Positions 315-40,703 of a stretch of DNA of 64,000 nt are shown piece by piece. Source of the stretch: an uncultured Bacteroidales bacterium. GTDB lineage: Bacteria; Bacteroidota; Bacteroidia; Bacteroidales; FEN-979. Positions within the stretch are counted from its first letter, which is position 1; every line of letters begins with the position of its first letter. The position numbers were made by a program, and so were the translations under genes. The notes under the pieces are model-generated. The model saw only the letters and a list, made by a program, of their open reading frames with translations, did no database searches and had not been told where the DNA came from. Where the stretch lies: the NCBI GenBank assembly GCA_903959905.1, contig CAJBYO010000005.1:148674-212673 (forward strand), given 5' to 3'.

Positions 315-1085
315 TTATATGTCACTTTTATCGATGTCTTTTTTATTTTGATTCTTAATGCGTTGATAACCAAAAAATTCAAGTTCCTCCAACAATTCCA
401 GGTTGCATTTCACAATGTCATTATGGCTCATTTCGTCAGGATAACGTAATAATTTTCCGGTGTTGTATTGTTTTTTTCCCTTTATTGGATTAATAGTCAG
501 AGAATTGATCACTTCCATGACAATTGAAGATTCAAATTCGATGTTAATAAAATTCGTAAACCGATTTAATTCATATACGGGATTCATTAATAAGTCATGA
601 TAGGTATAGGTTTCGCATAAACCGGACCGAACCCATTCAATTCCGGTCCTGCAAAAACCTTTTACGATGGGTATTGAGTTCTGTACTGTATCAAACTGCA
701 AAAAGAAGGTGCTCTTCGCCGGATGAAGGAGTGAACGGGTTCCATGATCAATCGCTGACAGGATCACGTCACGCGGGTCGCGGTGAATATAAGTCGCAAG
801 AATTTGTTTATTTAAAATGAGGTCTCTTATCTGATTGGTTAACGACGAATGTGTCTTTACAACAAAAGGTCCAATTTTTTTACTTAAGTCAACAAGGTTT
901 CCAAGGGTTTCCGGTGACTCAATATCATGCACAAAGATCCCGATACCATTAACTTTTCCTTCTTTGATCAATTGCTCAAATTCAGCCTGTCCATTATTGG
1001 GCATCAAACGTTTCAGAACACCTTTTTGATATAGTGATAACAGGGTCGAACCGGATTTGGGCATTCCCACACTTAGAACAAACAT
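315..1085 (-). CDS. PAPS-dependent sulfotransferase family protein
   Basis: 256-aa ORF. It has the N-terminal 5'-phosphosulfate-binding loop GMPKSGSTLL and the 3'-phosphate-binding motif YIHRDPRDVILSA, the two hallmark motifs of the sulfotransferase fold. Confidence 0.75.
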   Translation of the reverse strand: MFVLSVGMPKSGSTLLSLYQKGVLKRLMPNNGQAEFEQLIKEGKVNGIGIFVHDIESPETLGNLVDLSKKIGPFVVKTHSSLTNQIRDLILNKQILATYIHRDPRDVILSAIDHGTRSLLHPAKSTFFLQFDTVQNSIPIVKGFCRTGIEWVRSGLCETYTYHDLLMNPVYELNRFTNFINIEFESSIVMEVINSLTINPIKGKKQYNTGKLLRYPDEMSHNDIVKCNLELLEELEFFGYQRIKNQNKKDIDKSDI

Positions 1086-1148
1086 ACTTGTAAGGTTTGA
1101 TTTATTGTAATATTCAATAATGTATATTGATTAAGCGCTTTCGGACCA

Positions 1149-1380
1149 TTAAGGAAAAACAGCAGCTACAATTACCCTTTCGAACAAATCAGCATAGTTG
1201 CTCCTATTCAGTTCGTAAGCAAATTCGTTTAGATAGTTCTGTAAATAATCTGAGCTCATTTTATGTTAATTATTCGGTAATATGCATATTGACAAACTTA
1301 TGGAGATCCTGATAGTTATTTCCATGGTCGGTGAATGTTCCATCACAGGCCCACTTCTTAACGAAGAACGAAAATGACAG
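1149..1380 (-). pseudogene. Frameshifted remnant of an IS1595-family (ISXO2-like DDE) transposase C-terminus
   Basis: Minus-strand frames read ..VKKWACDGTFTDHGNNYQDLHKFVNMHITE* (1380-1270) and, in a different frame, MSSDYLQNYLNEFAYELNRSNYADLFERVIVAAVFP* (1259-1149). From memory, the latter resembles the conserved HLQxYxDEFxFRxNxR tail of IS1595 transposases. There is no intact ORF and I found no terminal inverted repeats. Confidence 0.4.
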
Positions 1381-1440
1381 GCTTTACATTCAAATTCCGC
1401 TGGTAACAGCACCAGGTAACAAAAATATTAAATAAAAACA

Positions 1441-1448
1441 TACCTTTG
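1441..1448 (+). promoter_or_regulatory. Bacteroidota-type -7 promoter box (TAnnTTTG) for the rmlC-like operon
   Basis: TACCTTTG at 1441-1448, 56 nt upstream of the ATG at 1504, in an AT-rich divergent intergenic region. Confidence 0.4.
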
Positions 1449-1503
1449 CGAATTGAGATCTAAGGAATCAATTAATTGAATATCATAACGCGAAAAATCA
1501 TTC

Positions 1504-2163
1504 ATGAAAATACTTGAAGTAAAATCACTGGGGATTCCGGATGTATTCATTATCCGGTTTGGCAAGTTTCCGGATGAGCGTGGTTATTTTACCGAACCAT
1601 TCCGTCAAAGTGATTTTGATAATCATCCTGATATGTCTTTTATAAAAGGTATCAGGTTCGTGCAACAAAACGAAAGTTTTTCGAAAAAAAACGTATTAAG
1701 AGGTCTTCATCTCCAATGGAATCCTTACATGGGAAAACTGGTCAGGACCATCCATGGACATATGATTGATATTTTCTGTGATATACGTAAAGGATCTCCG
1801 ACTTTCGGTAAAGTTCTTATGTATGATATGCGAATGAGTCCGGACAGTGAATACAGTGAATGGATCTGGGTGCCTCCCGGGTTCGCCCACGGGAATCTCT
1901 TTATGCAGGAAACGACGATTGAATATTTGTGCAGTGGGGAATACAGTCAGGGCAATGAAGCCTCCATTTCTGCATTATCACCAGATTTGGATTGGAGTTT
2001 ATGCGATCCCAGGCTATCGGGATATCTTTCTTCATTGAAAGGACAGTTAATTATTGCGGAAAAAGACAGGGCGGGACTTTCTTTGGATTTTTGGACCAAT
2101 GATACAAGGTCAGATAATTTTATTTATGAAAAATTAACGAATTCGCATGTTCGATCAAAGTAA
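1504..2163 (+). CDS. rmlC: dTDP-4-dehydrorhamnose 3,5-epimerase family (RmlC-like cupin)
   Basis: 219 aa with the RmlC signature blocks FPDERGYFTEPF, NVLRGLHLQ, GKLVRTIHGHMIDIFCDIRKGSPTFGK and WVPPGFAHGN. Confidence 0.8.
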   Translation: MKILEVKSLGIPDVFIIRFGKFPDERGYFTEPFRQSDFDNHPDMSFIKGIRFVQQNESFSKKNVLRGLHLQWNPYMGKLVRTIHGHMIDIFCDIRKGSPTFGKVLMYDMRMSPDSEYSEWIWVPPGFAHGNLFMQETTIEYLCSGEYSQGNEASISALSPDLDWSLCDPRLSGYLSSLKGQLIIAEKDRAGLSLDFWTNDTRSDNFIYEKLTNSHVRSK

Positions 2164-2866
2164 AATGCTGATTACAGGAGGCAGTGGCCTCCTTGGCAGT
2201 GCCTTGAAAAGAATATTTCCGCATGCGTGCTTCCCGTCATCAACTGAATTTGATATTACGGATTATTCGCAGATGATAAATTTCCTGCAAGGGAAATCCA
2301 TCGATACTATTTTCCACGGTGCGGCCTTTATTTCTCCCCCAAGAATTGATCAGGATCCTTTCAAAGCCATTGAAGTCAATATAATAGGCACAGCCAACAT
2401 CATTCAAGTGGCACGGAAACACGAAGCCCGTGTAATTTACATCAGCACTGATTATGTTTTTAAAGGTGACCGTGGCAACTATAGGGAAGATGAACCGGTA
2501 TATCCTGTTAATAAATATGCCTGGTCAAAACTGGGTGGTGAATGTGTGGTAAGGTTATATGATAAATCACTTATCATCCGAACAACTTTCGGACCGGATG
2601 TTTTCCAATATGAAAAAGCGTTTACAGATCAATGGACCAGCAGGGAATGTGTTACAAAGATCGCGGTCATGATCTCAAAATTAATTCAACTGGAACAAAC
2701 CGGTGTTGTTCATGTAGGGGGAAAAAGAAAAAGTGTGTATGATTATGCAACCAATCTTGATCCATTGAAAGAAATAGGAAAGATCAGTATAAATGATGTT
2801 CCCTTCAATGTTCCTGTTGATACATCACTGAATACCGAATTATATGACAATCTTGTAAAGGAATAA
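2147..2866 (+). CDS. RmlD-like sugar-nucleotide reductase (short-chain dehydrogenase/reductase (SDR) family, short form)
   Basis: Rossmann motif MLITGGSGLLGSAL and an RmlD-type block ISTDYVFKGDRGNYREDEPVYPVNKYAWSKLGGE. About 50 aa shorter than canonical RmlD. The true start may be the ATG at 2165 (MLITGG..). Confidence 0.65.
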   Translation: MFDQSKMLITGGSGLLGSALKRIFPHACFPSSTEFDITDYSQMINFLQGKSIDTIFHGAAFISPPRIDQDPFKAIEVNIIGTANIIQVARKHEARVIYISTDYVFKGDRGNYREDEPVYPVNKYAWSKLGGECVVRLYDKSLIIRTTFGPDVFQYEKAFTDQWTSRECVTKIAVMISKLIQLEQTGVVHVGGKRKSVYDYATNLDPLKEIGKISINDVPFNVPVDTSLNTELYDNLVKE

Positions 2867-2885
2867 GTTCTATAACAAAAGATGA

Positions 2886-3869
2886 ATGGAGAATAATCAT
2901 AAAATCCGTATCCTGGTCGGTGGCGGTGCCGGTTACATCGGCTCTGCCCTTGTGCCGGTTCTATTGGAGCATGGTTATGATGTGACCGTGATTGATCTGT
3001 TATGGTTTGGGAATCATCTTCCGAAAGAAGTTAAGGTGATACAGAAGGATTTGTTTGACTGCAAGGCAGAAGAAATGCGTGGATATGACCAGTTTATTTT
3101 TCTTGCAGGACTTTCAAATGATCCCATGGCGGAATTGAGCCCGGCTAAGAATTTTATTTACAATGCCGCCTTACCAGCCTATCTTGCTTTTGAAGCCAAG
3201 AAGGCAGGGATCAGGCGATTCATTTATGCATCTTCCTGTTCTGTTTACGGATATACCGTTGATAAACTTTTTGACGAAGAGTCGCCTGTAACCTGTGAAT
3301 ACCCTTATGGCATTTCAAAATTACAGGGAGAAAGAGGCGTATTTCAGATCCAGGACAGTTCATTTTCGTGTATTGCGTTACGACAGGGAACGATCGTCGG
3401 GTATAGCCCGCGGATGAGATTTGATTTGATAATCAACATGATGTTCAAGTCCTGCATGATGGACGGAATAATAACCATCAACAATCCGGCTATCTGGCGG
3501 CCTGTTTTTGATATCAGGGATGCAGTTTCTGCTTATATCCGGGCGATTCAGGCAGATTATTCCATGAGTGGTGTTTTTAATGTAACCTCGGGTAATTATA
3601 CCGTAGGCCAGGTTGGGGATTTTGTCAAGCAACAGGTTGAAATGAAGACAGATATTAATATAAAACTGAATATTAAACATATCCAGGACTTCCGGAACTA
3701 TAAAGTGAATATAGAGAAAGCAAAAACACTGCTTGGATTTCAGCCGCAATTTTCAATCGTCGAAACCATAGATTATCTGTTTAAGCATTACAATGAAATT
3801 TCTGATTTTGAAAATGATAATTATTACAATATCAATATATTCAAGAAACTTTTGAATTTCCACCTGTAA
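2886..3869 (+). CDS. NAD-dependent nucleotide-sugar epimerase/dehydratase (extended SDR)
   Basis: ILVGGGAGYIGSALV Rossmann motif, ASSCSVYG, and the catalytic YxxxK in YGISKLQGE. Confidence 0.8.
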   Translation: MENNHKIRILVGGGAGYIGSALVPVLLEHGYDVTVIDLLWFGNHLPKEVKVIQKDLFDCKAEEMRGYDQFIFLAGLSNDPMAELSPAKNFIYNAALPAYLAFEAKKAGIRRFIYASSCSVYGYTVDKLFDEESPVTCEYPYGISKLQGERGVFQIQDSSFSCIALRQGTIVGYSPRMRFDLIINMMFKSCMMDGIITINNPAIWRPVFDIRDAVSAYIRAIQADYSMSGVFNVTSGNYTVGQVGDFVKQQVEMKTDINIKLNIKHIQDFRNYKVNIEKAKTLLGFQPQFSIVETIDYLFKHYNEISDFENDNYYNINIFKKLLNFHL

Positions 3870-3885
3870 CACAAAACCTTGCCCG

Positions 3886-4683
3886 ATGTCAAAGACACTT
3901 GTAATTATACTGAACCACAACATACCTGAATATGCAAACAGGCTTTACGATTCGCTTAAAGATTTCCAGGGAGAGACCTTTGATGTCTTTGTCATGGACA
4001 ACGGATCAAAGCCTGAACTGATGCCTGCTACCACCCATATAAGGTTTGAGCAAAACCTTTACTGGGGAGGAGCGCTGAATGAGGCATTCAAGATTGTGCT
4101 GAAGGATGATACCTATGATTCCCTGTTATTCTTAAATAATGATATAGAAGTAACCGGTGAGGTTATGGTTGACCTTCTCAGGCAGGAGTTGTTCAACAAC
4201 GATTTTGTCTTGATCCACCCTTGTGTAGCAGGCAGTCCGCAGCCCTGGAGGCAGATGCAAAATTGGGGTAGCAGGGAGACCCGGGAAGTGAAATGGATTG
4301 ATTTAATTGCCCCGCTGTTTCACCGCAAACTCATTGAACAAGTAAGGGAGTTTCCTTCCGAACTGTATTTCGGATGGGGACAGGAATTGATCATTTTTGA
4401 CATCTGCCAGGAGAAGGGATGGAAGACCGGGGTTTGCGATCATGTATGTATTCTGCATTTTGGAAAACAGACCTATATTCAACAGAAGCTGTTCATAACT
4501 GAAGAAACAGATAATGGTCTTGTGGAAAGGGCTATTCCGATCAGCGAGCGGCATGCTTTGGCTGCCATTGAATATCGCACATATTTTCAGCTGAATGTCC
4601 TTAAGCATGGTGTTTTTGACGATCTTCGGAAATACGGGGAGGAATATACCTATTATAATGCCCTGTCAGATAAAACATACTGA
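3886..4683 (+). CDS. Glycosyltransferase family 2-like
   Basis: N-terminal LVIILNHNIPEYANRLYDSL...VFVMDNGSKPE and LFLNNDIEV (DxD-like position), which is the GT-A fold pattern. Confidence 0.6.
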   Translation: MSKTLVIILNHNIPEYANRLYDSLKDFQGETFDVFVMDNGSKPELMPATTHIRFEQNLYWGGALNEAFKIVLKDDTYDSLLFLNNDIEVTGEVMVDLLRQELFNNDFVLIHPCVAGSPQPWRQMQNWGSRETREVKWIDLIAPLFHRKLIEQVREFPSELYFGWGQELIIFDICQEKGWKTGVCDHVCILHFGKQTYIQQKLFITEETDNGLVERAIPISERHALAAIEYRTYFQLNVLKHGVFDDLRKYGEEYTYYNALSDKTY

Positions 4684-4747
4684 TTCCATACTTTCGTGCC
4701 ACTAAAGAAAAAAAAGCGTAAAGGATTTTGTTTATAGGATAAGGGTG

Positions 4748-6142
4748 TTAATCGGTAACAGGTTTTTGATTTTTACCATTGTTCTGCCGTTCATATGCTT
4801 TCATTTCAGTTGCTTGTCCATTATCCCCTTGCTGGCTCATCCATCTCATCAATTTCTTTCTTAATTGTTGGACTGTCTGAGCATTATTTGGATCACTGAT
4901 GATGTTGTGTTGTTCATACGGGTCATTGATGATGTTGTATAATTCTTCTGCGGGACGATGCTGATATCGGTTAACAATGAATTTTGCAATGGTATCCGTG
5001 TCAGCTTTTGCTATCCAGGATTTGAAGAGATTACCCCGGGTAAAAGTGCATTGAAAACTGGCTTCCGGTGTCAGGTTATAAATATAGCGAAACGTATCTG
5101 AACGGATTGTCCTGATGCCGTAATATTCAGGCCCACGGTCAATCCCTCTGGAAGTCTGGATTCCATAGGTGTAGTTCTTATGCGTTGTTTTCTCTCCTAA
5201 TAAAACAGGCAAAAAACTCTTTCCATCAAGATTGGAAGGCACTTTTCCTCTGCAAATTTCAATTAATGTCGGCGTAACATCAACATATTCAACCATTGCC
5301 TTCGTTTTTGAACCTGCCTTTACCTTTCCGGGCCACCTGACAATAAAAGCTGTTTGTAAACCATTGTCATAACATGTCCATTTTGCAAAAGGAAAATTGT
5401 TCCCATTTTCACTGGTAAATACGACAACCGTATTCTCAGTAAGATTAAATTTTTTCAGGAGTTCCAGACATTTTCCAACTTCTTCATCCATATAGATAAT
5501 CTCAGCCAGGTATTTAACAAATTTACTCCTCATCTCTTTGGAGTCAACATAGTATGGTGGTAACTGAATTTGTTTGGGATCAAATTTCAATGTATCCCCT
5601 TTGGTATGAGGAAAATGCGGCTGATGAGAACAAACAAAAAGGCAAAAAGGTTGATCCTGTCTTTTTGTTTCTGCAAGGAAATCATCCATTGCGTTGAAAT
5701 TGAGGTCATCTCCAGGATCCCCAAGGAAGTCAAAAGGAAATGACTCTGGCGGGCTTATATGTTGTTTCCCTAAAAGTGCCACCCTGTAACCAGCGGGTTT
5801 CAGATAATGAAAAATGCTTTTGGTACCAGCGTTAACATGTGAATGATTGGGATAAGCCCCGTTCCTCACCGGATATAACCCTGTATATAAACATGACCGT
5901 GCAGGGGTGCACATAGAAGTTGGCTGAAAGCAGCGCATGAATTGCATTCCTTCATTCGCCAATTTGTCAATATTGGGGGTCACGACATTGACCCCGCCGT
6001 AACTGTCCAAATCACGGAAAGTACAATCATCAGCAATAAAAAAAAGAATATTTGGCAGATTCTTTTTTATCTCATTTGTCTGGGCTAATATGCTTGAACA
6101 TAACATAATTGCCACACATTGAAACAGGAGTAACTTTTTCAC
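4748..6142 (-). CDS. Secreted formylglycine-dependent sulfatase (arylsulfatase family)
   Basis: Signal peptide MKKLLLFQCVAIMLCSSILAQ, metal-binding NILFFIADD, the sulfatase signature C-x-P-x-R in SMCTPARSCLYTG, and GKQH. Confidence 0.85.
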   Translation of the reverse strand: MKKLLLFQCVAIMLCSSILAQTNEIKKNLPNILFFIADDCTFRDLDSYGGVNVVTPNIDKLANEGMQFMRCFQPTSMCTPARSCLYTGLYPVRNGAYPNHSHVNAGTKSIFHYLKPAGYRVALLGKQHISPPESFPFDFLGDPGDDLNFNAMDDFLAETKRQDQPFCLFVCSHQPHFPHTKGDTLKFDPKQIQLPPYYVDSKEMRSKFVKYLAEIIYMDEEVGKCLELLKKFNLTENTVVVFTSENGNNFPFAKWTCYDNGLQTAFIVRWPGKVKAGSKTKAMVEYVDVTPTLIEICRGKVPSNLDGKSFLPVLLGEKTTHKNYTYGIQTSRGIDRGPEYYGIRTIRSDTFRYIYNLTPEASFQCTFTRGNLFKSWIAKADTDTIAKFIVNRYQHRPAEELYNIINDPYEQHNIISDPNNAQTVQQLRKKLMRWMSQQGDNGQATEMKAYERQNNGKNQKPVTD

Positions 6143-6418
6143 GATTGTAAATTAATTTGTTGATCCTCATGTATTGACTTTTTCGGATCATTTAAATAGG
6201 TAGGAAATTTCCCGGATTATAATGAACATTTTGTTATAGTTTCTTTTCCGCAGGCTTTCGGATTCTGTTCCTTTAGCGAACTGTCTAACCAGATAGTTTA
6301 TTCAGGCAGGTTGTGTTTCAGGATGGTAATGGGGGTTTATAACATCGGCCAGGTTATTTTGCCAAAAGTAAAAATATTTTTAACTTTATAAAAATTTTGT
6401 TTTCAAAATGATACCCGT

Positions 6419-7573
6419 TTGAATAAAAAGGCAGTCATTGTATTGGGTACACATCGTAGCGGGACCTCAACAGCTTCCGGGATTCTTTACACACTTGGTC
6501 TTGACCTTGGAAATGCCGTAATGGGAGGTAATGATTGCAATCCAAGGGGTTTTTTTGAGAACTACAGGATCATGTTTTACAATGAAGACCTATTGTGCAA
6601 ACTCCATGCAAACTGGCATAATACGGTAGTACTTCCCATTGACTGGTGGAAATCCGATGAGATCCGTGCAGAAATTGATCGGCTGAAAAACCTCATCCTT
6701 GATGATTATCGTTCAGATGCCCCCTTATTGTTCAAAGATCCAAGGATGTGCATCCTGCTTCCTGTTTATCTTGAAGTTTTCAAGCAACTGGAGATAGAAC
6801 CGTTTTTCGTATTGGCTTACCGTAATCCCCTTGAAGTTACGGAATCCCTTCAAAAACGCGATGGATTCTCACACGATAAATCTATTCGGATCTGGCTTGA
6901 TCATATGTTAAAGGCGGAAAAATATTCCCGGCAATATCCCCGCATTTTTATTGATTTTGGAGATATTCTTGTTGACCCACTTTCACTGCCGGAAAAAATT
7001 CATTCTTTTTTTCCCCCGGAGATTCAGATTAGAACAGGCATAAGAGAAAAGATCCTTCAGTTTGTTGAACCAGAATTGAACCATTACATCGGAATCCGCG
7101 ATCCTGAGTCATTAGCCTATGATGCGGACAGAATGGGGATCTTTGAACTTTTCAGGCAATTCGTTCATCGACAGGACACTTCCGTAGATCATGAATATCT
7201 TGATGGCTATTCCTCGATGTTTTATAACACCTATAACTCAGCAGCCTGGCCAAAAATATCTGTGCTCATGATGGCGGGAAATGAACCGGCTGCTTTAGAG
7301 AAAACAATCGTGAACGTTGTTACCCAGGATTATCCTGACCTTGAAAGCATCCTAATCTGGAGCGATCCGGCAATGGCTGTGCAGGCAGTCATCGAGAAAT
7401 ACAGGCATCTCGTTTCGATATGTGTCAGTGAACAAGGCTATGGACTTGCCGACGCCAGGAACAGGGGCATCGAACAGGCGTCGGGCAAATGGAAGATATT
7501 GATGGAGGCAGGCGAAGCATTTTTCCGGCAATCATCCCTTACTGAACTTGTGGGAAGGAGGGAACAGTCCTGA
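6419..7573 (+). CDS. Sulfotransferase fused to a degenerate, truncated GT2-like domain
   Basis: TTG start. N-terminal half has VLGTHRSGTSTASG (5'-PSB loop) and AYRNPLEVTESL (3'-PB motif). The C-terminal ~100 aa (ISVLMMAGNEPAALEKTIVNVVTQDYPDLESILIWSD...ARNRGIEQASGKW) has GT2 layout, but the DD and DxD acidic positions are replaced and the domain stops early. Confidence 0.65.
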   Translation: MNKKAVIVLGTHRSGTSTASGILYTLGLDLGNAVMGGNDCNPRGFFENYRIMFYNEDLLCKLHANWHNTVVLPIDWWKSDEIRAEIDRLKNLILDDYRSDAPLLFKDPRMCILLPVYLEVFKQLEIEPFFVLAYRNPLEVTESLQKRDGFSHDKSIRIWLDHMLKAEKYSRQYPRIFIDFGDILVDPLSLPEKIHSFFPPEIQIRTGIREKILQFVEPELNHYIGIRDPESLAYDADRMGIFELFRQFVHRQDTSVDHEYLDGYSSMFYNTYNSAAWPKISVLMMAGNEPAALEKTIVNVVTQDYPDLESILIWSDPAMAVQAVIEKYRHLVSICVSEQGYGLADARNRGIEQASGKWKILMEAGEAFFRQSSLTELVGRREQS

Positions 7574-7688
7574 CCTCTGCACCAAAGTTGATTTCCCCAT
7601 TTTTTCTATCTTTGCATCAAACCGGGCAGGCCTTGAACAAGTACGGAGCAGCCTGTCCTGGTATCCATTTACATCATACACCTCATGC

Positions 7689-10600
7689 ATGACCAGTAAG
7701 GCAAAGCAAGTATTGTTTTCAGTCAAATCTGATTTTACTTCACTTTTTACAAGTCTTACGATATGCATACTTACCTACTTTTCTTTTTTTACTGACATCG
7801 CAAGACAGCCTGCAAGCAGTTTCCCTGACAGGAGTATTGGGATTGCCGTCGTTTCAGGGGTGGATGCGAATCTGCGTACTTTACACTACTGCCTCATTAT
7901 ATTCTTTAGTGTCATCCTGATCTTTGCGCTGACTGTTTTGTTTTCATGGGTTAACAGGCTGGTGACCCGATTAACAAACCGGATTTATCTCCAGGCAGAG
8001 CATTCTATCCAGTTCGTACTTTCCATTTTTTCGGTTTTTCTTGTTTTCTACGCAATCGTCAGGGGAGATCTTTTTATCATGAAAATTGCGGGGGTTCTCC
8101 TGATTTTCATTGCGTTTCTCTATTATCTTATTTTACTGAAGACAGCAGTCTTTCGAAAAGCGCCTGCTATTTATCGCTATTATAAGGACTATTCAAGCCT
8201 AACACTCTCATTAATCTTATCATTTGCATTGATTTTTGCAGGGTGGGCCCTGTGGGGTATCCCTTTGGCGTTTACAAAGGCCCATGTGTTCTTTTACTTT
8301 ATGTTCAATGTGGTCTTTATCACCACCTATCCTCTATTGTTGCAATGGATAGGTTTAAGCCCGGGAAAAGTAAAGGCTCCAAACCTGTTGGCCACAATTC
8401 CACTGGCGCTGATTCCGGCTATGCTGCCTGTTTCCAACGAAATGCAATATGCACTGTCGGGAATCGTAAAGATTCAGCCACAGGAGTTTGCGGGGTTGAT
8501 CATCGGGTTATTGTTCCTGTTAAGCGTTCTGTTCTATGTGTTATTTTTATTCAAGCCGAGGCCAGTTAATGTATCATCGTTTGTAAGATCATTTTTATTT
8601 CCGGTCATCATTATTGGTTTTTATATGTGCCTGGAAGTAGATGGTTTCGTGAAGTTTAAGACTTTTGACCTGTTTCACAACGGGGAAAGAATGCTGGTAA
8701 CCCAGCAGCTTTTCTCTTTTGGAAGGATTCCATTTATTGATATAATTCCCACTCATGGGATCATGGACTTTTTCGGTCAGGCTCTTTATTCAGCAGTAAA
8801 TGGTTATCGCGGACCAGAAATGTTCTTATGGCAATGGATACCGGTTTTGGCTGGAATCCTGTTGATGTACTTCATGCTTGCGCGGTTGATCTCGCCTGTT
8901 TTCAGTTTCCTTTTAATTCTCGTGACACCTGAAGTATTCATATTTAACGATTATTACACGTTATGTTTAGTCATACCCCTTGTTTTTCTGTGGGTTATCA
9001 ATCGACCAAACCTGACAAGGTACCTGGTGCTGTGGTTGTCGATAGTGCTGTTGTTTTTCTGGAGATATGATTTCGGTGTTATTGCCATTGTTACCTCTTT
9101 TTGCTTAGTCCCCGGCGTTTACTTTGTAAAATCAAATGATGCATTGACCTACAGTTCCATGTTAAGGGCATTCAAACCTGCTGTGATTGCATTTGTTATT
9201 GTTTTTTCTGTGTCGCTGCTTCTCTATTCCCTGATTTTATTGTTAAATGGCCAGAATCCTGTTGAGATGCTGGGGCAATTTTATATTTACTTTAAAAGTC
9301 AGGCACCCACACAGTCACTCGTTGACGTATTTAACAGTTACAACTTGTATTTTCTGCTGGAATATATCGTTAGTCCGATGATTTCCATATTGTACATCGT
9401 ATTTTATTTGAATTCCCTGATATTCAGGAAAGTTGACTTTAAGGCCCCGCAAATCCTATTGGCCTGGCTCGCGATATTTGCTGTTATCATGACGATGCGA
9501 ACGATTCAAAGGCATACGATACTTGAAGGGTTCAATCCTGTGCTTAGTATTTTTCTGCTTTGTACCATTCCTGTTTATTTTTCGCATACCAGCAAGTGGG
9601 TTTCCCATGCAGTCTTTATATTTACATTCCTGATATATACAATGTTACTGGCAAATATGCAGAAACGGGTCTATGTGAGAATAAACCCGGTGAACCTTAT
9701 TCCCAAGGATCAACTGTATAATTTCTTTTCATTTCCAAATAAAGCATCAAGGGTAACTATCAGTGATTCTTCGCAATTTAAAAATTTCAAAAAATTCTGT
9801 GATGCACAGCTCAAAAGTGATCAGACATTTTTTGATTTTTCCAATGCCCCTTTACTCTATGTTTTCACAAACAGGATGTTTCCTGCTCATCTTATCCCGA
9901 ACCTTTTCCAGGCAGCCGATCCGATTGAGGATTACCTGATAAAACGTTTGGATACTTATTTGAAAAGCGGGAAAATGCCATTGGTCCTGTTCAAACAGAA
10001 CACAGGATGGGATTCTATTGATGGTGTACCGCAACCAGTGAGGAGCTACCGGGTGGCAGAGTTTATCTACAGGAACTATATTCCATTTGCCAAGATAGAC
10101 AATTATGAGATCTGGAAAAGTAAACTGAGCCATTTAGACCTGGAGAAACCAAATGTGATCTCACCGGTTTTCCGGAAACACCCTGAGAATAGAATCCGGG
10201 AAATTGAAATCAGAGATTTTACTGCAGACAGTATCACCATGCATACTTACGGCGGAGACTCCCATATATTTAATGCACTGGATTTCGGAAAAGGTTTACC
10301 ACTGGACTCGTCCAGGGTGTATAAACTCTCCTTATCCTCTAGAAGTAGTCTTCCTGGGACCTTTCAAATTTTTTATTCTGTGAATGGATCACCATTTAAT
10401 GGAAAAGAGAGTATTTCTTTCCAGGTCAACGGGGGAAACTCCAAACAGGAGAGGTCTTTCATTCTCCCTAAATTTAGAGAAGGATCATTTCTGACCGATT
10501 TAAGGTTCGACCCTCCTTCCGGCGCAGATTTCTGCCTGTTTAAGCCGGTAATAACCGCAGCATTTTTTTTACCGGTTGACCGTACAGACCCCCAGATCTT

Positions 10601-10994
10601 TAACCTTAAAAAATTGCCTTATATCTGGGCAAATTTCGATGAAAAGAAGGCCTCCACAAAAACAGAAATTCTTGAGGACCATTTAATAAAAGACACCAGC
10701 CTGGGATCGATGGAATCAAAAAGTATCGCGATAGGTGCGGATTTTGACAAAAATGATGGCAACTACCTGCACCTGTTTATCAGTGCAAAAGACAGCGGCC
10801 AGGTTTCGATCTCTTACGGTAATTATTATACCTCGACGATTCAATTTGATCTGGAACCGACAGGAAAGACAGAACAATACCTGGTAAGAGTAAGTATGCA
10901 ATGGGCCTGGATGAACGACCGGATCGATAAAATTACTGTCCGGAGTTCCGTTCCGGTTATTTTTAGCAGGATGGTTATCAGAAAAGGAGACTAA
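7689..10994 (+). CDS. Very large polytopic membrane protein (~20+ TM segments) with a ~420-aa C-terminal soluble beta-rich region; family unassigned, possible GT-C/polymerase-like enzyme
   Basis: ORF 7548-10994. The likely start is the ATG at 7689 (MTSKAKQ..), just before the first hydrophobic segment. The stop overlaps the next start (TAATG). The C-terminal third is hydrophilic with beta-sandwich-like sequence (..LTDLRFDPPSGADF..). Confidence 0.55.
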   Translation: MTSKAKQVLFSVKSDFTSLFTSLTICILTYFSFFTDIARQPASSFPDRSIGIAVVSGVDANLRTLHYCLIIFFSVILIFALTVLFSWVNRLVTRLTNRIYLQAEHSIQFVLSIFSVFLVFYAIVRGDLFIMKIAGVLLIFIAFLYYLILLKTAVFRKAPAIYRYYKDYSSLTLSLILSFALIFAGWALWGIPLAFTKAHVFFYFMFNVVFITTYPLLLQWIGLSPGKVKAPNLLATIPLALIPAMLPVSNEMQYALSGIVKIQPQEFAGLIIGLLFLLSVLFYVLFLFKPRPVNVSSFVRSFLFPVIIIGFYMCLEVDGFVKFKTFDLFHNGERMLVTQQLFSFGRIPFIDIIPTHGIMDFFGQALYSAVNGYRGPEMFLWQWIPVLAGILLMYFMLARLISPVFSFLLILVTPEVFIFNDYYTLCLVIPLVFLWVINRPNLTRYLVLWLSIVLLFFWRYDFGVIAIVTSFCLVPGVYFVKSNDALTYSSMLRAFKPAVIAFVIVFSVSLLLYSLILLLNGQNPVEMLGQFYIYFKSQAPTQSLVDVFNSYNLYFLLEYIVSPMISILYIVFYLNSLIFRKVDFKAPQILLAWLAIFAVIMTMRTIQRHTILEGFNPVLSIFLLCTIPVYFSHTSKWVSHAVFIFTFLIYTMLLANMQKRVYVRINPVNLIPKDQLYNFFSFPNKASRVTISDSSQFKNFKKFCDAQLKSDQTFFDFSNAPLLYVFTNRMFPAHLIPNLFQAADPIEDYLIKRLDTYLKSGKMPLVLFKQNTGWDSIDGVPQPVRSYRVAEFIYRNYIPFAKIDNYEIWKSKLSHLDLEKPNVISPVFRKHPENRIREIEIRDFTADSITMHTYGGDSHIFNALDFGKGLPLDSSRVYKLSLSSRSSLPGTFQIFYSVNGSPFNGKESISFQVNGGNSKQERSFILPKFREGSFLTDLRFDPPSGADFCLFKPVITAAFFLPVDRTDPQIFNLKKLPYIWANFDEKKASTKTEILEDHLIKDTSLGSMESKSIAIGADFDKNDGNYLHLFISAKDSGQVSISYGNYYTSTIQFDLEPTGKTEQYLVRVSMQWAWMNDRIDKITVRSSVPVIFSRMVIRKGD

Positions 10995-12199
10995 TGGAAA
11001 AATTCAAATTCCTCATTATGGGAGCCGGGCCATCCGGACTTGCTTTTGCTCATACCTTACTGAGGCATGGAGAACGTTCATTTGTTGTGATGGAGAAGGA
11101 GGTGCAGGCAGGAGGACTTTGCCGGTCCAAAACAGTCGATGGGTCCCCGCTTGATATCGGAGGCGGACATTTCCTGGATACAAGAATCCCCCATGTCGTA
11201 GACTTTTTATTCCAGTTCCTTCCGAAAGATCAATGGACCATTTTTGAAAGAAAATCGGCAATAGACTTTGGGGATTACAGTGTTGATTACCCAATTGAAT
11301 CAAATATATGGCAGCTTCCGGTTGAGAAACAGGTTGAGTACATTGAAGCGGTAGCTTATTCAGGCGAAAACATGGGGGTCAATACTCCGGAGAAATTTCA
11401 AGACTGGATCTTATGGAAATTAGGCAGAAAGATCGCGGATGACTATATGTTTCCCTACAACCGGAAAATATGGTCAATTGACCTTGAGGAGCTAGGTACC
11501 TATTGGATCGATAAATTACCTTCTGTCTCCTTCAGGGAGGTGCTGTTCAGTTGCCTGTCACGAAAACCGTTTGGAAAGGTGCCAGCACATCAGACTTTCT
11601 ATTATCCTGAAAATTACGGATATGGGGAGGTCTGGGACAGGATGGGAAGGGAACTCGGTGATAAACTGTTGTTATCCATGCCAGTCCGTACCCTTGATGC
11701 TCCGAATCGCACTGTAAACCGTCAGATTTCGGCTGATATCATTATCAATACGGTTCCATTGAGCTCCTTTGAGCTTGCCGGCGTACCCGGGGATATTCAA
11801 AACTCCATTGCCAGCCTGAAACATGCCGGCATCCAGATTGATTATTACAATACGAATCTGGAAAGCGACAAACAGTGGATCTACATACCCAATGAACAAG
11901 TATCCTATCACAGGATACTTAACAGGAAAACCTTTGTCAACGGATCACATGGTTACTGGACAGAGACCAATTTACGCAGAGCTGTGGAAACTTCCGCCAG
12001 AGTCGCTGTAAACGATTTTTCATATCCGATAAATACCAGGGAAAAACCCATGCTGATGAAGAAGATAGCGGCGTTTTTCTCAGGTTTGAACATTTACGGA
12101 CTTGGTCGCTGGGGCACCTGGGAACATATTAATTCAGATATCGCGGTAAAACAAGGCATCGAACTCGCGGAAATGCTGCTAAATAAAACAACCAAATGA
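10994..12199 (+). CDS. FAD/NAD(P)-binding oxidoreductase, UDP-galactopyranose-mutase-like
   Basis: N-terminal dinucleotide fold KFLIMGAGPSGLAFAHTLL...VVMEKEVQAGGLCRS, DIGGGHF, and the C-terminal GLGRWGTWEHINSDIAVKQG, resembling the UGM/amine-oxidase superfamily layout. The exact activity is not determinable by eye. Confidence 0.55.
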   Translation: MEKFKFLIMGAGPSGLAFAHTLLRHGERSFVVMEKEVQAGGLCRSKTVDGSPLDIGGGHFLDTRIPHVVDFLFQFLPKDQWTIFERKSAIDFGDYSVDYPIESNIWQLPVEKQVEYIEAVAYSGENMGVNTPEKFQDWILWKLGRKIADDYMFPYNRKIWSIDLEELGTYWIDKLPSVSFREVLFSCLSRKPFGKVPAHQTFYYPENYGYGEVWDRMGRELGDKLLLSMPVRTLDAPNRTVNRQISADIIINTVPLSSFELAGVPGDIQNSIASLKHAGIQIDYYNTNLESDKQWIYIPNEQVSYHRILNRKTFVNGSHGYWTETNLRRAVETSARVAVNDFSYPINTREKPMLMKKIAAFFSGLNIYGLGRWGTWEHINSDIAVKQGIELAEMLLNKTTK

Positions 12200-12882
12200 C
12201 CATCGGCCTCTGTTTACTCGTTTACAATGAATTGGAAGGATGTCGGCAAACCGTCCCTTTGGTCAGTGCCGACCAATTTGATGAGGTTTTCGCAGTTGAC
12301 GGTGGCAGTACCGACGGAACGATCGAATACCTCAGGTCAGCCGGGATAGAAGTGCGGGTTCAGCCAAAGAAAGGATATAATGCCGCATATATCCATGCTT
12401 ATGAAACAACTTCCTGCGACGCATTGATTTTCTTTCATCCTAAAGGAACGATTCTTCCGGCGCAGACACTGCTTTTCAGGAATTATTTTTCCCTCGGATA
12501 TGATCTTATTATTGCCAGCAGGATCATGAAGGGAGCGGTAAATGAAGAGGATGTGCACGTTCTAAAGCCAAGAAAGTGGTTCGTGACTGGATTGGGGATG
12601 CTTGTAGCTCTTATTTGGAAACGGGAAGGGAATTTTGTGGGAGATGTATTGCATGGATTCAGAGGGATGACAAAATCGGCATTCCTGGAAATAGAACCTC
12701 TTGATAGAGGTCTTTCCATTGACGTTGAAATGGTTGTCCGCTCATATCGTAAAAAGATGAAAAGGATTGAATTCCCGGTTCACGAGCGTTCCAGAGAATT
12801 CGGGGAGACTCACTTCAGGCCGATACCTACTGCAAAAGGAATATTCAGGTATCTTTTGTTTGAATTAAAGAGACAGGCCTAA
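12196..12882 (+). CDS. GT2, DPM1-like polyprenyl-phosphate sugar synthase-like (soluble form)
   Basis: LCLLVYNELEGCRQTVPLV...AVDGGSTDGT and HGFRGM. 228 aa with no TM helices. The ATGA overlap with the upstream gene suggests translational coupling. Confidence 0.6.
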   Translation: MTIGLCLLVYNELEGCRQTVPLVSADQFDEVFAVDGGSTDGTIEYLRSAGIEVRVQPKKGYNAAYIHAYETTSCDALIFFHPKGTILPAQTLLFRNYFSLGYDLIIASRIMKGAVNEEDVHVLKPRKWFVTGLGMLVALIWKREGNFVGDVLHGFRGMTKSAFLEIEPLDRGLSIDVEMVVRSYRKKMKRIEFPVHERSREFGETHFRPIPTAKGIFRYLLFELKRQA

Positions 12883-14706: not shown

Positions 14707-15669
14707 TTATGCTTCAAGGTTGCGTTGGAAACATCGGCTGTAAATCTCAATTAACTCCTTATGGGTTAATTTTACAAGTATGTCATCAGGAGTTTCGCCC
14801 CCAAGCATAGGTATTCGCTCCCTGATGGCCACCATCTCACATTCCCTGATCATTTCGGATGTAACCGGGTTCTCGTCTGCGCCTGTCTGGATACATGTCA
14901 ACAGATACTCATCTTCCTGCCTGATATTAAATTGAATCATTTTTCGCGACGGAGACCATTTTCCATAAGTAGCTGCAAGACGGCGATTGACAAAGGTTGC
15001 CAGGGTTGCCCTTTCCTCTTCAGGAATATCACTCAGATGATCAGGCTTATCCTGGAAAATTGTGCGGTTACCATGGGGGATGTGATATAGTGTATCAAGG
15101 TCGAAATCATTGCGCGTCAGTCCTGCCGCTGCAAGACGCTGGTAAAGGTCACTGTCGTCCCATCCATAGAACTTGATGAACTCATTGTACCCGTTTACAC
15201 TAAAAAAATCTTCGCGATGCAGATAAACAATGCCGTTCAGATGCATCTCATTATCGTTGCGACGTATCCTCCAGTTTCCGCAGTAAAACTTCCCAGGTTC
15301 AAGAATGTGTTTTTCGAAAAAACGAGGTAGAATTTTAACATCGGCATCAATTTTAAGAATTTTGGTCCTGGAGGTGAGTCTGGCAGCAAGGTTATAGGCA
15401 AACGACAGGATCCATTTTGGCTGATCACTGACTACAGCCAGAATGATCTTTCCGTTCTGGTACTTTTGAACTAATGGCAGCAGGGTTAAATCAGATCCCC
15501 AGTCAACGATAATAATTTCATCAATCTCTTCATGGGTGATCCATGTTTTCAATGCTTCTTCAAAGGACTCCTGCCTGTTTTTTACAGCAGTGATCAGGGA
15601 AATTCCTTTTTTTATTTCTTCCTGACTTGCTTGAGAATCATTCGTGGAAATCCTGCGGATATTTACCAT
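14707..15669 (-). CDS. Glycosyltransferase (GT-A fold, GT2/galactosyltransferase-like)
   Basis: ISLITAVKNRQESFEEALKTW...IIIVDWGSD and a DxD motif in LKIDADVKI. Overlaps the SxtJ-like gene by 7 nt. Confidence 0.6.
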   Translation of the reverse strand: MVNIRRISTNDSQASQEEIKKGISLITAVKNRQESFEEALKTWITHEEIDEIIIVDWGSDLTLLPLVQKYQNGKIILAVVSDQPKWILSFAYNLAARLTSRTKILKIDADVKILPRFFEKHILEPGKFYCGNWRIRRNDNEMHLNGIVYLHREDFFSVNGYNEFIKFYGWDDSDLYQRLAAAGLTRNDFDLDTLYHIPHGNRTIFQDKPDHLSDIPEEERATLATFVNRRLAATYGKWSPSRKMIQFNIRQEDEYLLTCIQTGADENPVTSEMIRECEMVAIRERIPMLGGETPDDILVKLTHKELIEIYSRCFQRNLEA

Positions 15670-16031
15670 GGCTTAGTGAAGGAGGTGGCTGTAAATTGTT
15701 TGCCTGTGTTGGTAAAGAGACTTGAATCCCTGTTCTTTAACGTTAAAAAGTCGATTCGGCGAAAGAGCCGTGACAGCAACGTAATGGGAAAAATGACGAA
15801 ATAAAAAACAATCGCCAGAAGTATATTGGGTATTACCAGGCCAAGCAACCATGCCAGTTTCATCCACAGCCGGTCAATCAATAAGCTCAACATGGATGAA
15901 AACATTCCAGTCAGACCTATTGCCATAGCCAGGTATATAAGCCAGCCCAGTTTGGTGAAGCAGTAAATTACGAGGATGCCCGTACAAATTGTCAATACAG
16001 TTTTAGTGGGGTTAATATTTGATTTTTTCAT
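15663..16031 (-). CDS. SxtJ-family small membrane protein (carbamoyltransferase-associated)
   Basis: 122 aa with 3 TM helices and the C-terminal ..FTKPW tail that I recall for the SxtJ family. It sits in a carbamoyltransferase neighbourhood. Confidence 0.6.
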   Translation of the reverse strand: MKKSNINPTKTVLTICTGILVIYCFTKLGWLIYLAMAIGLTGMFSSMLSLLIDRLWMKLAWLLGLVIPNILLAIVFYFVIFPITLLSRLFRRIDFLTLKNRDSSLFTNTGKQFTATSFTKPW

Positions 16032-16092
16032 ATCCAGGTTGTAAAATTAGCTGAAAAATTGCGGAAGACTTAAGGGTGTCCATTCCCTCCTG

Positions 16093-16242
16093 TTAGAACA
16101 ACGCATAAATAAATGGCGCAACCGCACTGGTGCCTCCAAATACGATGAACAGCCCCAAAAGAAGGAGCACCAGGATGATAGGAGCAAGCCAGAGTTTTTT
16201 CCGTTCCTTCATGTATTGCCATAAATCATTTAAGAATTCCAT
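16093..16242 (-). CDS. DUF5989 / SxtK-like 49-aa membrane protein (absent from the ORF track because it is <60 aa)
   Basis: Minus-strand ATG at 16242 and TAA at 16093-16095. Translation is MEFLNDLWQYMKERKKLWLAPIILVLLLLGLFIVFGGTSAVAPFIYALF. The MEFLxDLWxYMKERKKxWLxPI..APFIYxLF pattern matches what I recall of the DUF5989 family. It starts 1 nt after the stop of the upstream gene. Confidence 0.75.
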   Translation of the reverse strand: MEFLNDLWQYMKERKKLWLAPIILVLLLLGLFIVFGGTSAVAPFIYALF

Positions 16243-16243
16243 T

Positions 16244-17533
16244 TTATTTGTGTTTTAATTGGTTGACGATGGCCTCCGTATAGATTGAATGTGCAAAAAT
16301 ATTTGGATGGGCATCAAATTGTATCGCCTTACGCGGTGTTGAATGATGGATTCGATACAATTTGCCATATTTCATTCCTGTTCGCAAAACAACTACCTCT
16401 AATGCTGAATCAATATCAATAACAGGGGCTCGCTGGCGTAATTGTCTTACCAGTTGTTTGCACTCACTATCCGGATAATTAATCTTTAAGAAGATTGGAG
16501 TTGCTGAATTTTTAAGACAAATGTCGGCCATTCGATTGTAAAAATAGGATTCAAGTTTTGACCTGTTCATGGTCGGATTTGGCTGGAAACCCAATATTAC
16601 TTTTAATGAGGTAAATTTGAATGCACAATAATCATGAATTTCAATTTTGTATCCATCAGAAAACAAGAATTTAATTTTTTCGAAATAGGATCTTTCAGTT
16701 TTTCGCCAGTTTTTACCAGAATACATTAATGTTGAATAAGAAGGGGGATTCAGTGTGAAAGTGTCATTATTGTCGGAAAAGTAAGGGAACGGGCGATAGC
16801 CGAATCGGGTTGGTCCGTTGATTTCCATTGCCCGGGGTACAATCCAGGAACTCAGTTGAATAAAAACGTAGTGAAATTTCCTTTTGGGAAGGAGTGTTTC
16901 TGCAATTTGGATCATTTGTCCTGAACCAAACCCAGATATCGCAGCATTGATATAGTTATGACCAAGCTTTTCTGATGTAAGATATGAATAGGTTTTCTGT
17001 GCTTCAACGAAATCTCCGAAAGTAAAGGAGCACCCCAGGTACAAGTCGGTTGTATCCGATTTAATCTGGAGGGAATCTGGTGCAGTGCGGAATCCAAGCG
17101 AATCAAAGAGTACAGGGACACTTCCGTCAATGGTATCCCCGATGTAGTAATTGTAGGTTCCTTTGGCGAATGGTCTGCCTTTGTACGACAATGAATCATC
17201 AAATTGGAACACCATGCCTGTCGTGCTTTTTTTCAGTGTCTTTGAATAATAGTAGAATTTGTTGACAGCGACCAGACGGTCGGCGACAGCCATGGAAACG
17301 ATTAAGGTAAAGATGATGAAAAAGGCAATGGTAAGTTTTTTTGATTTCAGACTGAAGGCCCTGTTGTATAAAAAATTAATAAACAGTAAAAACAGGGTAA
17401 TTGAAACTCCAAGGAAATCAGTCATGTAGAGCCACTGCCTTTCTTCCCATAAAAAGGTTCCCAGGTATACCAAATAGTCAAGTATAATCAGTATTGCAAC
17501 AATGACCAGTGTGGAAACAATCATTTTCCTCAT
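16244..17533 (-). CDS. Membrane-anchored SGNH/GDSL-like hydrolase or acyl(carbamoyl)transferase-like protein
   Basis: N-terminal 3-4 TM helices. Block-I-like YLGCSFTFGD (Ser retained) and block-V-like QFDAHPNIFAHSIYTEAI (DxxH). The likely ATG is at 17533, 5 nt after the carbamoyltransferase stop. Confidence 0.45.
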   Translation of the reverse strand: MRKMIVSTLVIVAILIILDYLVYLGTFLWEERQWLYMTDFLGVSITLFLLFINFLYNRAFSLKSKKLTIAFFIIFTLIVSMAVADRLVAVNKFYYYSKTLKKSTTGMVFQFDDSLSYKGRPFAKGTYNYYIGDTIDGSVPVLFDSLGFRTAPDSLQIKSDTTDLYLGCSFTFGDFVEAQKTYSYLTSEKLGHNYINAAISGFGSGQMIQIAETLLPKRKFHYVFIQLSSWIVPRAMEINGPTRFGYRPFPYFSDNNDTFTLNPPSYSTLMYSGKNWRKTERSYFEKIKFLFSDGYKIEIHDYCAFKFTSLKVILGFQPNPTMNRSKLESYFYNRMADICLKNSATPIFLKINYPDSECKQLVRQLRQRAPVIDIDSALEVVVLRTGMKYGKLYRIHHSTPRKAIQFDAHPNIFAHSIYTEAIVNQLKHK

Positions 17534-17538
17534 GTGCA

Positions 17539-40692: not shown

Positions 40693-40703
40693 GGAGGAAG
40701 ACG

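Follow-up and report, generated by a model that had tools for sequence, protein, structure and literature searches.

An ABC-transporter-dependent glycan locus of an uncultured Bacteroidales genus with four predicted sulfotransferase genes and an exported sulfatase

Overview of the locus

The DNA analysed here (the window) is a 64,000-nucleotide stretch from an uncultured Bacteroidales bacterium (assembly GCA_903959905.1, contig CAJBYO010000005.1, positions 148,674 to 212,673). The genes under study are two open reading frames (ORFs) with sulfotransferase motifs, ST_C (315-1085) and ORF7 (6419-7573), and the gene for an exported sulfatase (4748-6142) that lies between them. These three ORFs are the middle of a surface-glycan locus of ~55 kb, roughly C5:139.7-192.4 kb, in an uncultured genus of the order (C with a number denotes a contig of this assembly). 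The window begins within the locus, and the 20 kb before it (L008) carries further locus genes, including wzm, wzt and two more sulfotransferase genes, ST_A and ST_B; at the other end the locus runs to ~43.7 kb of the window, with housekeeping genes after ~44 kb. It is AT-rich, with a GC content of 0.33-0.45 compared with 0.471 genome-wide. Coordinates of all features are listed in Table 1.

An initial annotation of the window had described two sulfotransferases, each with both motifs for binding 3'-phosphoadenosine 5'-phosphosulfate (PAPS), and between them a signal-peptide sulfatase with an intact CTPAR site, all set among sugar-nucleotide enzymes and glycosyltransferases. All three ORFs are real, with the coordinates and strands then assigned, the two motifs of ST_C and of ORF7 can be read in their translations, the sulfatase matches PF00884 with CTPAR in place, and the neighbours include RmlC-like and RmlD-like genes, a short-chain dehydrogenase/reductase (SDR) epimerase and many genes for family 2 glycosyltransferases (GT2). 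The count of sulfotransferases, however, was incomplete, as ST_A and ST_B lie just upstream of the window; the predicted sulfation module of the locus comprises four sulfotransferase(-like) genes.

The genes wzm and wzt are directly upstream of ST_A, and ST_A and ST_B directly follow wzt. In profile searches of L008, Wzm matches PF01061 at 48 bits; Wzt matches PF00005 at 80 bits and, at its C-terminus, the carbohydrate-binding domain Wzt_C (PF14524) at 58.6 bits, the cut-off being 30.4. With Wzm, Wzt and Wzt_C all found, the locus is predicted to encode a glycan pathway dependent on an ATP-binding cassette (ABC) transporter, with four cytoplasmic sulfotransferase(-like) proteins.

Sulfotransferases and PAPS supply

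ST_C scores 40.4 bits (E 3e-10) with PF00685 (Sulfotransfer_1), whose cut-off is 22. Its motifs are PKSGST at residues 9-14 (the 5'-phosphosulfate-binding, or 5'-PSB, loop), KTH at 77-79 (read as the site of the catalytic base), and RDPRDVILS at 102-110 (the 3'-phosphate-binding, or 3'-PB, motif, R-x7-S). The best matches in the PDB are weak (E 0.05) and are to cytosolic sulfotransferases (SULTs), HMMER pairing KTH with KSH of SULT1A3. Orthologs with 52-63% identity adjoin ORF7 homologs in three other loci (L010, L041 and L052). Of the two genes upstream, ST_A matches PF13469 at 58 bits, and ST_B matches PF00685 at 86.5 bits and has the motifs QKGGTS and RNPADRAYS. In the gap between ST_C and the rmlC-like gene (1149-1380) the minus strand reads SDYLQNYLNEFAYELNRSNYADLFERVI, interrupted by stops. 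We take this stretch to be similar to the C-terminus of IS1595-family transposases, in which case it would be a rearrangement scar beside the inverted sulfotransferase gene.

ORF7 is a predicted fusion of a sulfotransferase domain to half of a GT2 domain. It contains HRSGTS (residues 12-17), RNPLEVTES (135-143, with R-x7-S spacing) and also FKDPR. Pfam searches of the first 276 residues gave no direct sulfotransferase match, only a weak one to AAA_18 appearing with E up to 1, and single-sequence and profile searches of the PDB with ORF7 returned GT2 matches only. A database search yielded 95 relatives, and in an alignment of 60 of them R135 is invariant and HRSGTS (H12-S17) and S143 are at least 90% conserved; 35 of the 60 match PF13469 (best 2e-15) and 13 match PF00685. 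An AlphaFold model built on this alignment (mean pLDDT 93.5) has human TPST2 with bound PAP (3ap3) as its top Foldseek match in the PDB (E 7e-5, TM 0.50 on the target), followed by the sulfotransferase domains of CurM and OLS (olefin synthase) and by SULT2B1b. A comparison of the N-domain with ST_B and ST_C by hhalign gives E ~0.008 and a probability of 5%, with the PAPS motifs of ORF7 and ST_B in register. As the direct sequence tests are weak, we file the domain as a predicted divergent sulfotransferase on its modelled fold, its motifs and its family rather than on its own hidden Markov model (HMM) score. The initial annotation had allowed for membership of a P-loop family other than the sulfotransferases; the fold is best matched by sulfotransferases, and the family matches PF13469 and PF00685.

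The C-terminal part of ORF7 covers only positions 1-91 of the 168 in PF00535 and has EAGE at the place of the DxD motif, and so is not a complete GT-A domain; in the model, residues 280-384 resemble the first half of GT-A glycosyltransferases. In the long family members (513-533 aa) the GT2 domain is more complete, yet the DxD place is occupied by NAGD or NPGD. ORF7 and its 77-79% identical orthologs all stop just past that place, and between ORF7 and its ortholog in L051 (see below) the ratio of nonsynonymous to synonymous substitution rates (dN/dS) amounts to 0.23 over the sulfotransferase domain and 0.28 over the half-GT2. The shared stop position and this low ratio indicate that the truncation is a maintained state and not decay. 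A pseudogene or frameshift was considered and rejected: there is no GT2 continuation in the next frame, the orthologs stop alike, and the downstream gene has its own ATG at 7688, as it does in L051. Since the half-GT2 is conserved without DxD, it probably binds an acceptor or partner rather than transferring sugar.

The initial annotation had found no cysC, cysDN, or sulfatase-maturating enzyme in the window, and matches to these families across the genome all lie on other contigs. For PAPS synthesis, the search that it called for was successful: CysC (248 bits) is on C69, and CysD (455 bits) and CysN (539 bits) are on C15, all far over the family cut-offs. The genome has a single CysH, which passes the model for thioredoxin-dependent adenosine 5'-phosphosulfate (APS) reductases and retains the CC...CxxC iron-sulfur cysteines. 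Organisms with a CysH of the APS-reductase type reduce APS directly in sulfur assimilation, so that assimilation here would be independent of PAPS and CysC would make PAPS for sulfation. PAPS supply is a necessary condition for a sulfated glycan and not proof of one.

On C15 (64413-68870, L050) cysD and cysN are immediately downstream of a gene for a Wzc-like polysaccharide tyrosine autokinase on the same strand, and the APS synthesis genes thus lie in a polysaccharide-export context. On C67 (6590-12032) a further sulfotransferase gene (396 aa, PF13469 106 bits) is 1.9 kb from that of a second S1 sulfatase (787 aa, CSPTR), both being on the minus strand. Two genes lie between them, one of which looks by eye like an outer-membrane beta-barrel, and the region is not a glycan locus.

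Identity and origin of the sulfatase

The sulfatase is of the S1 formylglycine type. Its N-terminus, MKKLLLFQCVAIMLCSSILA before QT, reads by eye as a signal peptide, and residues 78-88 carry the signature CTPAR-SCLYTG. CTPARSCLYTG and a DD metal pair are invariant in an alignment of its clade, and the whole clade has SENG instead of DHG or DNG. The nearest solved structures are S1_8A 9bb9 (1e-43), S1_11 BT4656 5g2v (8e-39) and human SGSH 4mhx (2e-37), an order that gives an indication of subfamily S1_8. Homologs are numerous, with more than 5,000 at E < 1e-40, and the neighbourhoods of three close full-length homologs (56-66% identity) were read: all three are in SusC/SusD polysaccharide utilization loci (PULs) alongside other sulfatases, with fucosidases in one and a putative GH120 in one. 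By these relationships the sulfatase appears to derive from catabolic S1 sulfatases of the PUL type. No SusC/SusD or glycoside hydrolase gene was found in the ~55-kb locus, which is not itself a PUL. GC content is uninformative as a sign of foreign origin, that of the sulfatase gene (0.398) being similar to the rest of the low-GC locus.

Proposed pathway and its alternatives

We propose that the locus makes a glycan that is sulfated in the cytoplasm and exported by the ABC transporter, and that a laterally recruited, exported sulfatase processes the cell's own product, a reading to which we assign a probability of roughly 55%. The part of it that concerns synthesis, in which the glycan is sulfated by four PAPS-type sulfotransferase(-like) proteins, is the more secure and we regard it as probable; here the initial suggestion of a sulfated surface glycan has gained support from the four genes, from Wzm/Wzt_C export, and from the presence of CysDN, CysC and a CysH of the APS-reductase type. 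Desulfation of the cell's own product as the role of the sulfatase we favour only slightly.

The glycan would be built at the cytoplasmic side of the inner membrane, where ST_A, ST_B, ST_C and the N-domain of ORF7 would add O-sulfate to the lipid-linked chain, or to its non-reducing end, ahead of export; the sulfotransferases have no export signals and are predicted to use PAPS, which suggests that they act on lipid-linked glycan in the cytoplasm. CysDN and CysC, encoded elsewhere in the genome, would supply the PAPS, and Wzm/Wzt, with Wzt_C on the ATPase, would export the sulfated glycan. The sulfatase gene would have been gained laterally from S1 sulfatases of the PUL type by one small sublineage and then kept by the sulfotransferase genes. 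Because the sulfatase is exported, it would meet the glycan after export, and there may remove some of the sulfate, either trimming the pattern or clearing stray polymer. This role would need conversion of Cys78 to formylglycine.

Several observations weigh against this proposal. Gene content, domain identities, synteny, selection and phylogeny were read directly, whereas the sulfate on the glycan we infer from genes alone. CysC belongs to the core gene set of the genus, 22 of 24 congeners having it, and other PAPS consumers are to be expected, since no fewer than six additional sulfotransferase genes lie elsewhere in the genome; for these two reasons the presence of CysC was discarded as a marker of the locus. 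The sulfatase has no ortholog in the 24 genomes of the same genus and no close homolog in 400 other genomes of the order, and the closest fully sampled syntenic contig, with a 79% identical ORF7 (JGI 3300075153), has only a 287-bp gap at its position, which together point to lateral acquisition and show that a locus of this type can do without the gene. It is likewise absent from every more distant locus of the ORF7 type, and the glycan pathway clearly works without it. The gene is on the opposite strand and presumably has its own promoter. The two contigs that share it, described below, are 2.3-kb metagenome fragments that show the immediate gene neighbourhood.

Maturation adds to these points. 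The assembly has three true S1 sulfatases, its other PF00884 matches being LtaS-like membrane proteins. No anaerobic sulfatase-maturating enzyme (anSME) scores over the cut-off in the assembly, the best match to TIGR03942 having 62.7 bits against 349; this candidate, on C85, fits radical-SAM maturase models for ribosomally synthesized and post-translationally modified peptides (RiPPs) better and was rejected. Neither is there a true formylglycine-generating enzyme (FGE) among its five PF03781 proteins, which were read by eye and in none of which the catalytic cysteine pair (C-x4-C) is present; at least two of them resemble, in our reading, GldJ/GldK-type proteins. The same search found anSME in 10 of the 24 congeners, at 460-500 bits, so the method works. 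The gap that the initial annotation had seen in the window, and had hoped to fill from elsewhere in the genome, therefore extends over the whole assembly, a draft metagenome-assembled genome (MAG) of 104 contigs that is 97.75% complete. Either the maturase gene is in the missing ~2% of the draft, or Cys-type sulfatases are matured here by another route, or the sulfatases are inactive. Escherichia coli can mature Cys-type sulfatases by a route other than the known maturases. In a related locus of the ORF7 type (L009:12923-13861, GCA_005795865.1) a 312-aa protein with an FGE-sulfatase domain is encoded among glycosyltransferases.

Many of these observations suit an alternative in which the glycan is sulfated as proposed but the sulfatase has no part in the pathway: it would be a catabolic enzyme for foreign sulfated fucans or similar glycans that landed in a low-GC locus prone to recombination and travels along with it. 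The PUL membership of all its nearest full-length relatives examined, its absence from the close syntenic contig, from the other ORF7-type loci, from congeners and from genomes of the order, its inverted orientation, the apparent IS1595-type transposase remnant nearby (~1149-1380), and the lack of a maturase in the assembly would all be accounted for. We nevertheless consider it unlikely, for an exo-sulfatase on its own, with no glycosidase to work with, is not obviously of much use in catabolism, the sulfatase in the window adjoins no SusC/D, glycoside hydrolase or other catabolic partner, and the same sulfatase subclade occurs beside the same sulfotransferase genes in three independent samples and in two gene orders.

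The first of the two matching contigs, L051 (JGI 3300038679), comes from another sample and has the same divergent pair of sulfatase and ORF7 genes, with an ORF7 ortholog that is 77% identical and a sulfatase with 88% amino acid identity over the first 98 residues; the region between the two genes is also conserved (Table 1). In the second, L052 (JGI 3300013136), from a third sample, the gene for a 71% identical sulfatase comes first, that for an ST_C-like sulfotransferase (53%) second, and the beginning of an ORF7-like gene third. A tree of 51 sequences groups the sulfatases of the window and of L052 with 100/100 support; their clade has a long stem and is separate from the groups with the three PUL-linked homologs. 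The dN/dS of the sulfatase is 0.11-0.19, and relative to L052 the synonymous sites are saturated (dS 1.8) while dN/dS is 0.11, a combination that also speaks against a passenger gene. The data are better explained by one recruitment, after which the gene long stayed with the sulfotransferases and went through at least one rearrangement, than by a recent accidental insertion. Where the initial annotation had offered an editing sulfatase or a passenger, the evidence points to something intermediate, a PUL-derived gene outside the conserved core that has nevertheless been kept by the same sulfotransferases in two other contigs with two gene orders. A PF00884 protein in L011 was rejected as a second recruited sulfatase, as it is membrane-anchored, LtaS/EptA-like and without CxPxR.

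A further alternative is that the sulfotransferases act on another acceptor (a lipid, small molecule or protein), or that ORF7 is a non-catalytic pseudo-enzyme scaffold and the sulfatase an inactive relic without formylglycine. It could draw on the lack of a direct Pfam match and the poor profile score of ORF7 against ST_B and ST_C, the loss of DxD from its GT2 half, the missing maturase, and Aeromonas salmonicida, in which no sulfate was detected despite a sulfotransferase gene in the cluster. However, both PAPS-binding motifs are (nearly) invariant across 60 members of the ORF7 family, its fold matches sulfotransferases with bound PAP, ORF7 and the sulfatase are both under purifying selection, and four sulfotransferases lie among glycosyltransferase and export genes in an arrangement conserved in several genomes; we regard this alternative as very improbable.

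Other genes of the locus and a possible chain-end signal

Table 1. Features of the glycan locus; coordinates are those of the window unless a contig or locus is named.
Feature	Coordinates	Strand	Description
Genes of L008	upstream of window		order: T9SS C-terminal-domain protein, two conserved family-less proteins, Wzm, Wzt, ST_A, ST_B, PMT_2-like membrane protein
wzm, wzt, ST_A, ST_B	C5:142951-147042 (L008:14278-18369)		directly before window start
Two sulfotransferase genes (ST_A, ST_B)	C5:145220-146170 and C5:146224-147042		1.6-3.5 kb before window start
ST_C	315-1085	-	predicted sulfotransferase, 256 aa, no signal peptide; PF00685
RmlC-like	1504-2163	+	PF00908 139 bits
RmlD-like, short	2147-2866	+	PF04321 103 bits
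SDR epimerase	2886-3869	+	PF01370 97 bits
GT2 glycosyltransferase	3886-4683	+	265 aa; PF00535 29.7 bits
Sulfatase	4748-6142	-	predicted exported S1 formylglycine-type sulfatase, 464 aa, GTG start; PF00884 130 bits, SGSH_C (PF16347)
Divergent intergenic region, sulfatase/ORF7	6143-6418		conserved with L051; 91% mean column identity over aligned 5850-6450
ORF7	6419-7573	+	384 aa, TTG start; predicted sulfotransferase domain residues 1-270, half GT2 280-384
Polytopic membrane protein	7688-10994	+	~1100 aa, large C-terminal soluble part; starts at own ATG
UGM-like flavoenzyme	10994-12199	+	PF13450, PF01593, weak GLF match
Small GT2	12196-12882	+	PF00535
Remaining glycan locus	12976-43734		family-less polytopic membrane protein, GT2/GT7C, SxtJ-like and NodU-type carbamoyltransferase, coiled-coil GT2, two WbsX, GT4-GT2, methyltransferase, several GT2/GT4, methyltransferase-GT2 fusion, DUF2142 membrane protein
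Carbamoyltransferase region	15663-19410	-	NodU/CmcH-type carbamoyltransferase, SxtJ-like small membrane protein, 431-aa protein without family match
Methyltransferase-GT2 fusion	39289-40860	-	methyltransferase residues 95-237, GT2 residues 289-447

A backbone of genes recurs in other Bacteroidales MAGs: a protein with a type IX secretion system (T9SS) domain, two family-less proteins, Wzm/Wzt, sulfotransferases and GT2 in its first part, and in its second an ORF7 homolog, the 1100-aa membrane protein, the flavoenzyme resembling UDP-galactopyranose mutase (UGM) and the small GT2. The Wzm/Wzt pair is also in L009, L010 and the contig carrying P0002, and the last of these shares the trio of RmlC-like, RmlD-like and SDR epimerase genes as well. 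These three genes probably supply a 6-deoxy-L-hexose; TIGR01221 and TIGR01214 match the RmlC- and RmlD-like genes of the window with scores under their cut-offs. The GT2 at 3886-4683 is the most constant neighbour of ORF7 homologs, with homologs of 54-70% identity adjoining them in 12 fetched loci. The ~1100-aa membrane protein, for which there is no match in Pfam, NCBIfam or the PDB, is kept downstream of ORF7 homologs, and in L010 (60% identity) it is followed by the flavoenzyme and small GT2 as in the window. The membrane protein after ST_B is weakly PMT_2-like and is possibly a GT-C enzyme.

The carbamoyltransferase in the region 15663-19410 matches the NodU model weakly (124.6 bits, cut-off 1000), and this gene suggests that the glycan probably bears carbamoyl groups in addition to sulfate; the equivalent position in L010 is taken by methyltransferases. 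The trio at the head of this type of locus, a T9SS C-terminal-domain protein (~486 aa) followed by family-less proteins of ~220 and 262-287 aa (L008:11062-14117), is found also in L009, L010, L011 and L017, and its recurrence in several Bacteroidales MAGs suggests that the glycan may be connected with type IX secretion.

The candidate cap enzymes in the locus are the four sulfotransferases, one methyltransferase and one methyltransferase-GT2 fusion (39289-40860). The fusion has the same modifier-plus-GT2 architecture as ORF7, and is a candidate for a conventional chain-end capping enzyme. This repertoire raises a different possibility, namely that a sulfotransferase, most plausibly the ORF7 fusion, caps the non-reducing end, that Wzt_C reads the cap to license export, and that the exported sulfatase removes or edits it. 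Two sulfotransferase genes directly follow a wzt with Wzt_C, a coiled-coil GT2 is suggestive of a molecular ruler, and the modifier-GT2 fusion is present twice. Wzt-like ATPases are encoded within 10 kb of ORF7-like sulfotransferase genes in 11 distinct loci; seven of these come from bacteria other than Bacteroidota, and the association extends to several phyla. In A. salmonicida, too, a gene with a sulfotransferase domain adjoins wzt, yet no sulfate was seen in the repeat unit (PMC4483657), and literature searches found no paper on a sulfate cap. The scheme is, however, purely inferential, the methyltransferases of the locus could make a conventional methyl cap, four sulfotransferases exceed the need of a cap, and most loci of this type are without a sulfatase; it is distinctly improbable. 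Equally doubtful is its fullest form, a cycle of writing, reading and erasing in which sulfate would be a transient chain-end tag and the sulfatase, recruited from a PUL family, would erase it outside the cytoplasm.

Comparison with known systems

Few sulfated glycans are so far known from bacteria, and sulfatases in Bacteroidota are read as signs of catabolism. If the proposed cytoplasmic sulfation, ABC export and post-export desulfation are correct, they amount to a genetically defined route to a sulfated, probably carbamoylated, ABC-pathway surface glycan in an uncultured Bacteroidales genus, and a sulfatase of the PUL type would have moved into a biosynthetic setting and been kept there. 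Sulfatase counts in metagenomes would then not all represent degradation potential, and bacterial glycan sulfate patterns may be edited after export. The locus would also offer a candidate, open to testing, for a novel chain-end signal recognized by Wzt, and its sulfotransferases could serve in microbial production of sulfated polysaccharides.

Exported degradative enzymes are familiar from exopolysaccharide operons, as in AlgL, BcsZ, PslG and PelA, which are lyases or glycosidases and conserved core members. The proposed arrangement is similar in having an exported enzyme that acts on the operon's own product encoded among synthesis genes, but here it is a sulfatase and is limited to one sublineage. 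It shares its fold and active-site motif with the PUL S1 sulfatases of Bacteroidota and other phyla, but this copy and its two closest relatives adjoin sulfotransferases rather than SusC/D genes and form their own long-stemmed clade. The analogy with eukaryotic Sulf enzymes drawn in the initial annotation holds as a functional concept only, that of desulfating a finished glycan after export; the nearest solved structures are of the S1_8/S1_11 type, there is no sign in the 464-aa protein of the inserted hydrophilic domain of Sulf1/Sulf2, and it is not a member of that group.

Rhizobial NodH and NodU decorate Nod factors, and LpsS/KPS sulfation occurs in Sinorhizobium. PAPS-dependent sulfation and NodU-type carbamoylation of a glycan are likewise predicted here from the genes, although the product would be a polymer exported by a Wzm/Wzt-type pathway and not a lipochitooligosaccharide, and there is no nod gene context.

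The closest parallels for export are the capped O-antigens read by the carbohydrate-binding module of Wzt, as with WbdD of E. coli O9a and WbbB of Klebsiella pneumoniae O12, in which the known caps are methyl, phosphomethyl and beta-Kdo (PMC3482155, PMC9445017). Our locus resembles such ABC-dependent systems in its Wzm, its Wzt with Wzt_C, its coiled-coil glycosyltransferase and its fusions of modifier enzymes, but no WbdD-like kinase was seen in it.

Polysaccharide loci with sulfotransferases are known in cyanobacteria, marine Gammaproteobacteria, Kiritimatiellae and rhizobia. They include the synechan xss cluster of Synechocystis (PMC8205485), those for the sulfated capsules of Cobetia marina and Vibrio sp. 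KMM 8419 (PMC11766843, PMC11641403) and the sulfated-polysaccharide loci for the exopolymers of Pontiella (PMC7356697). They have in common with the present locus cytoplasmic sulfotransferases of the PF00685/PF13469 type among glycosyltransferase and export genes, with PAPS from CysDN and CysC; the present locus differs in belonging to Bacteroidales, in its Wzm/Wzt(Wzt_C) export, and in having four sulfotransferases, one of them fused to half a GT2. It also has an exported S1 sulfatase within the biosynthetic locus, whereas the titles and abstracts on the synechan, Cobetia, Vibrio and Pontiella clusters mention no sulfatase. What is new is the combination: four predicted sulfotransferases on a Wzm/Wzt(Wzt_C) pathway in Bacteroidales, a conserved fusion of a sulfotransferase to half a GT2, and a PUL-derived sulfatase subclade in a biosynthetic locus.

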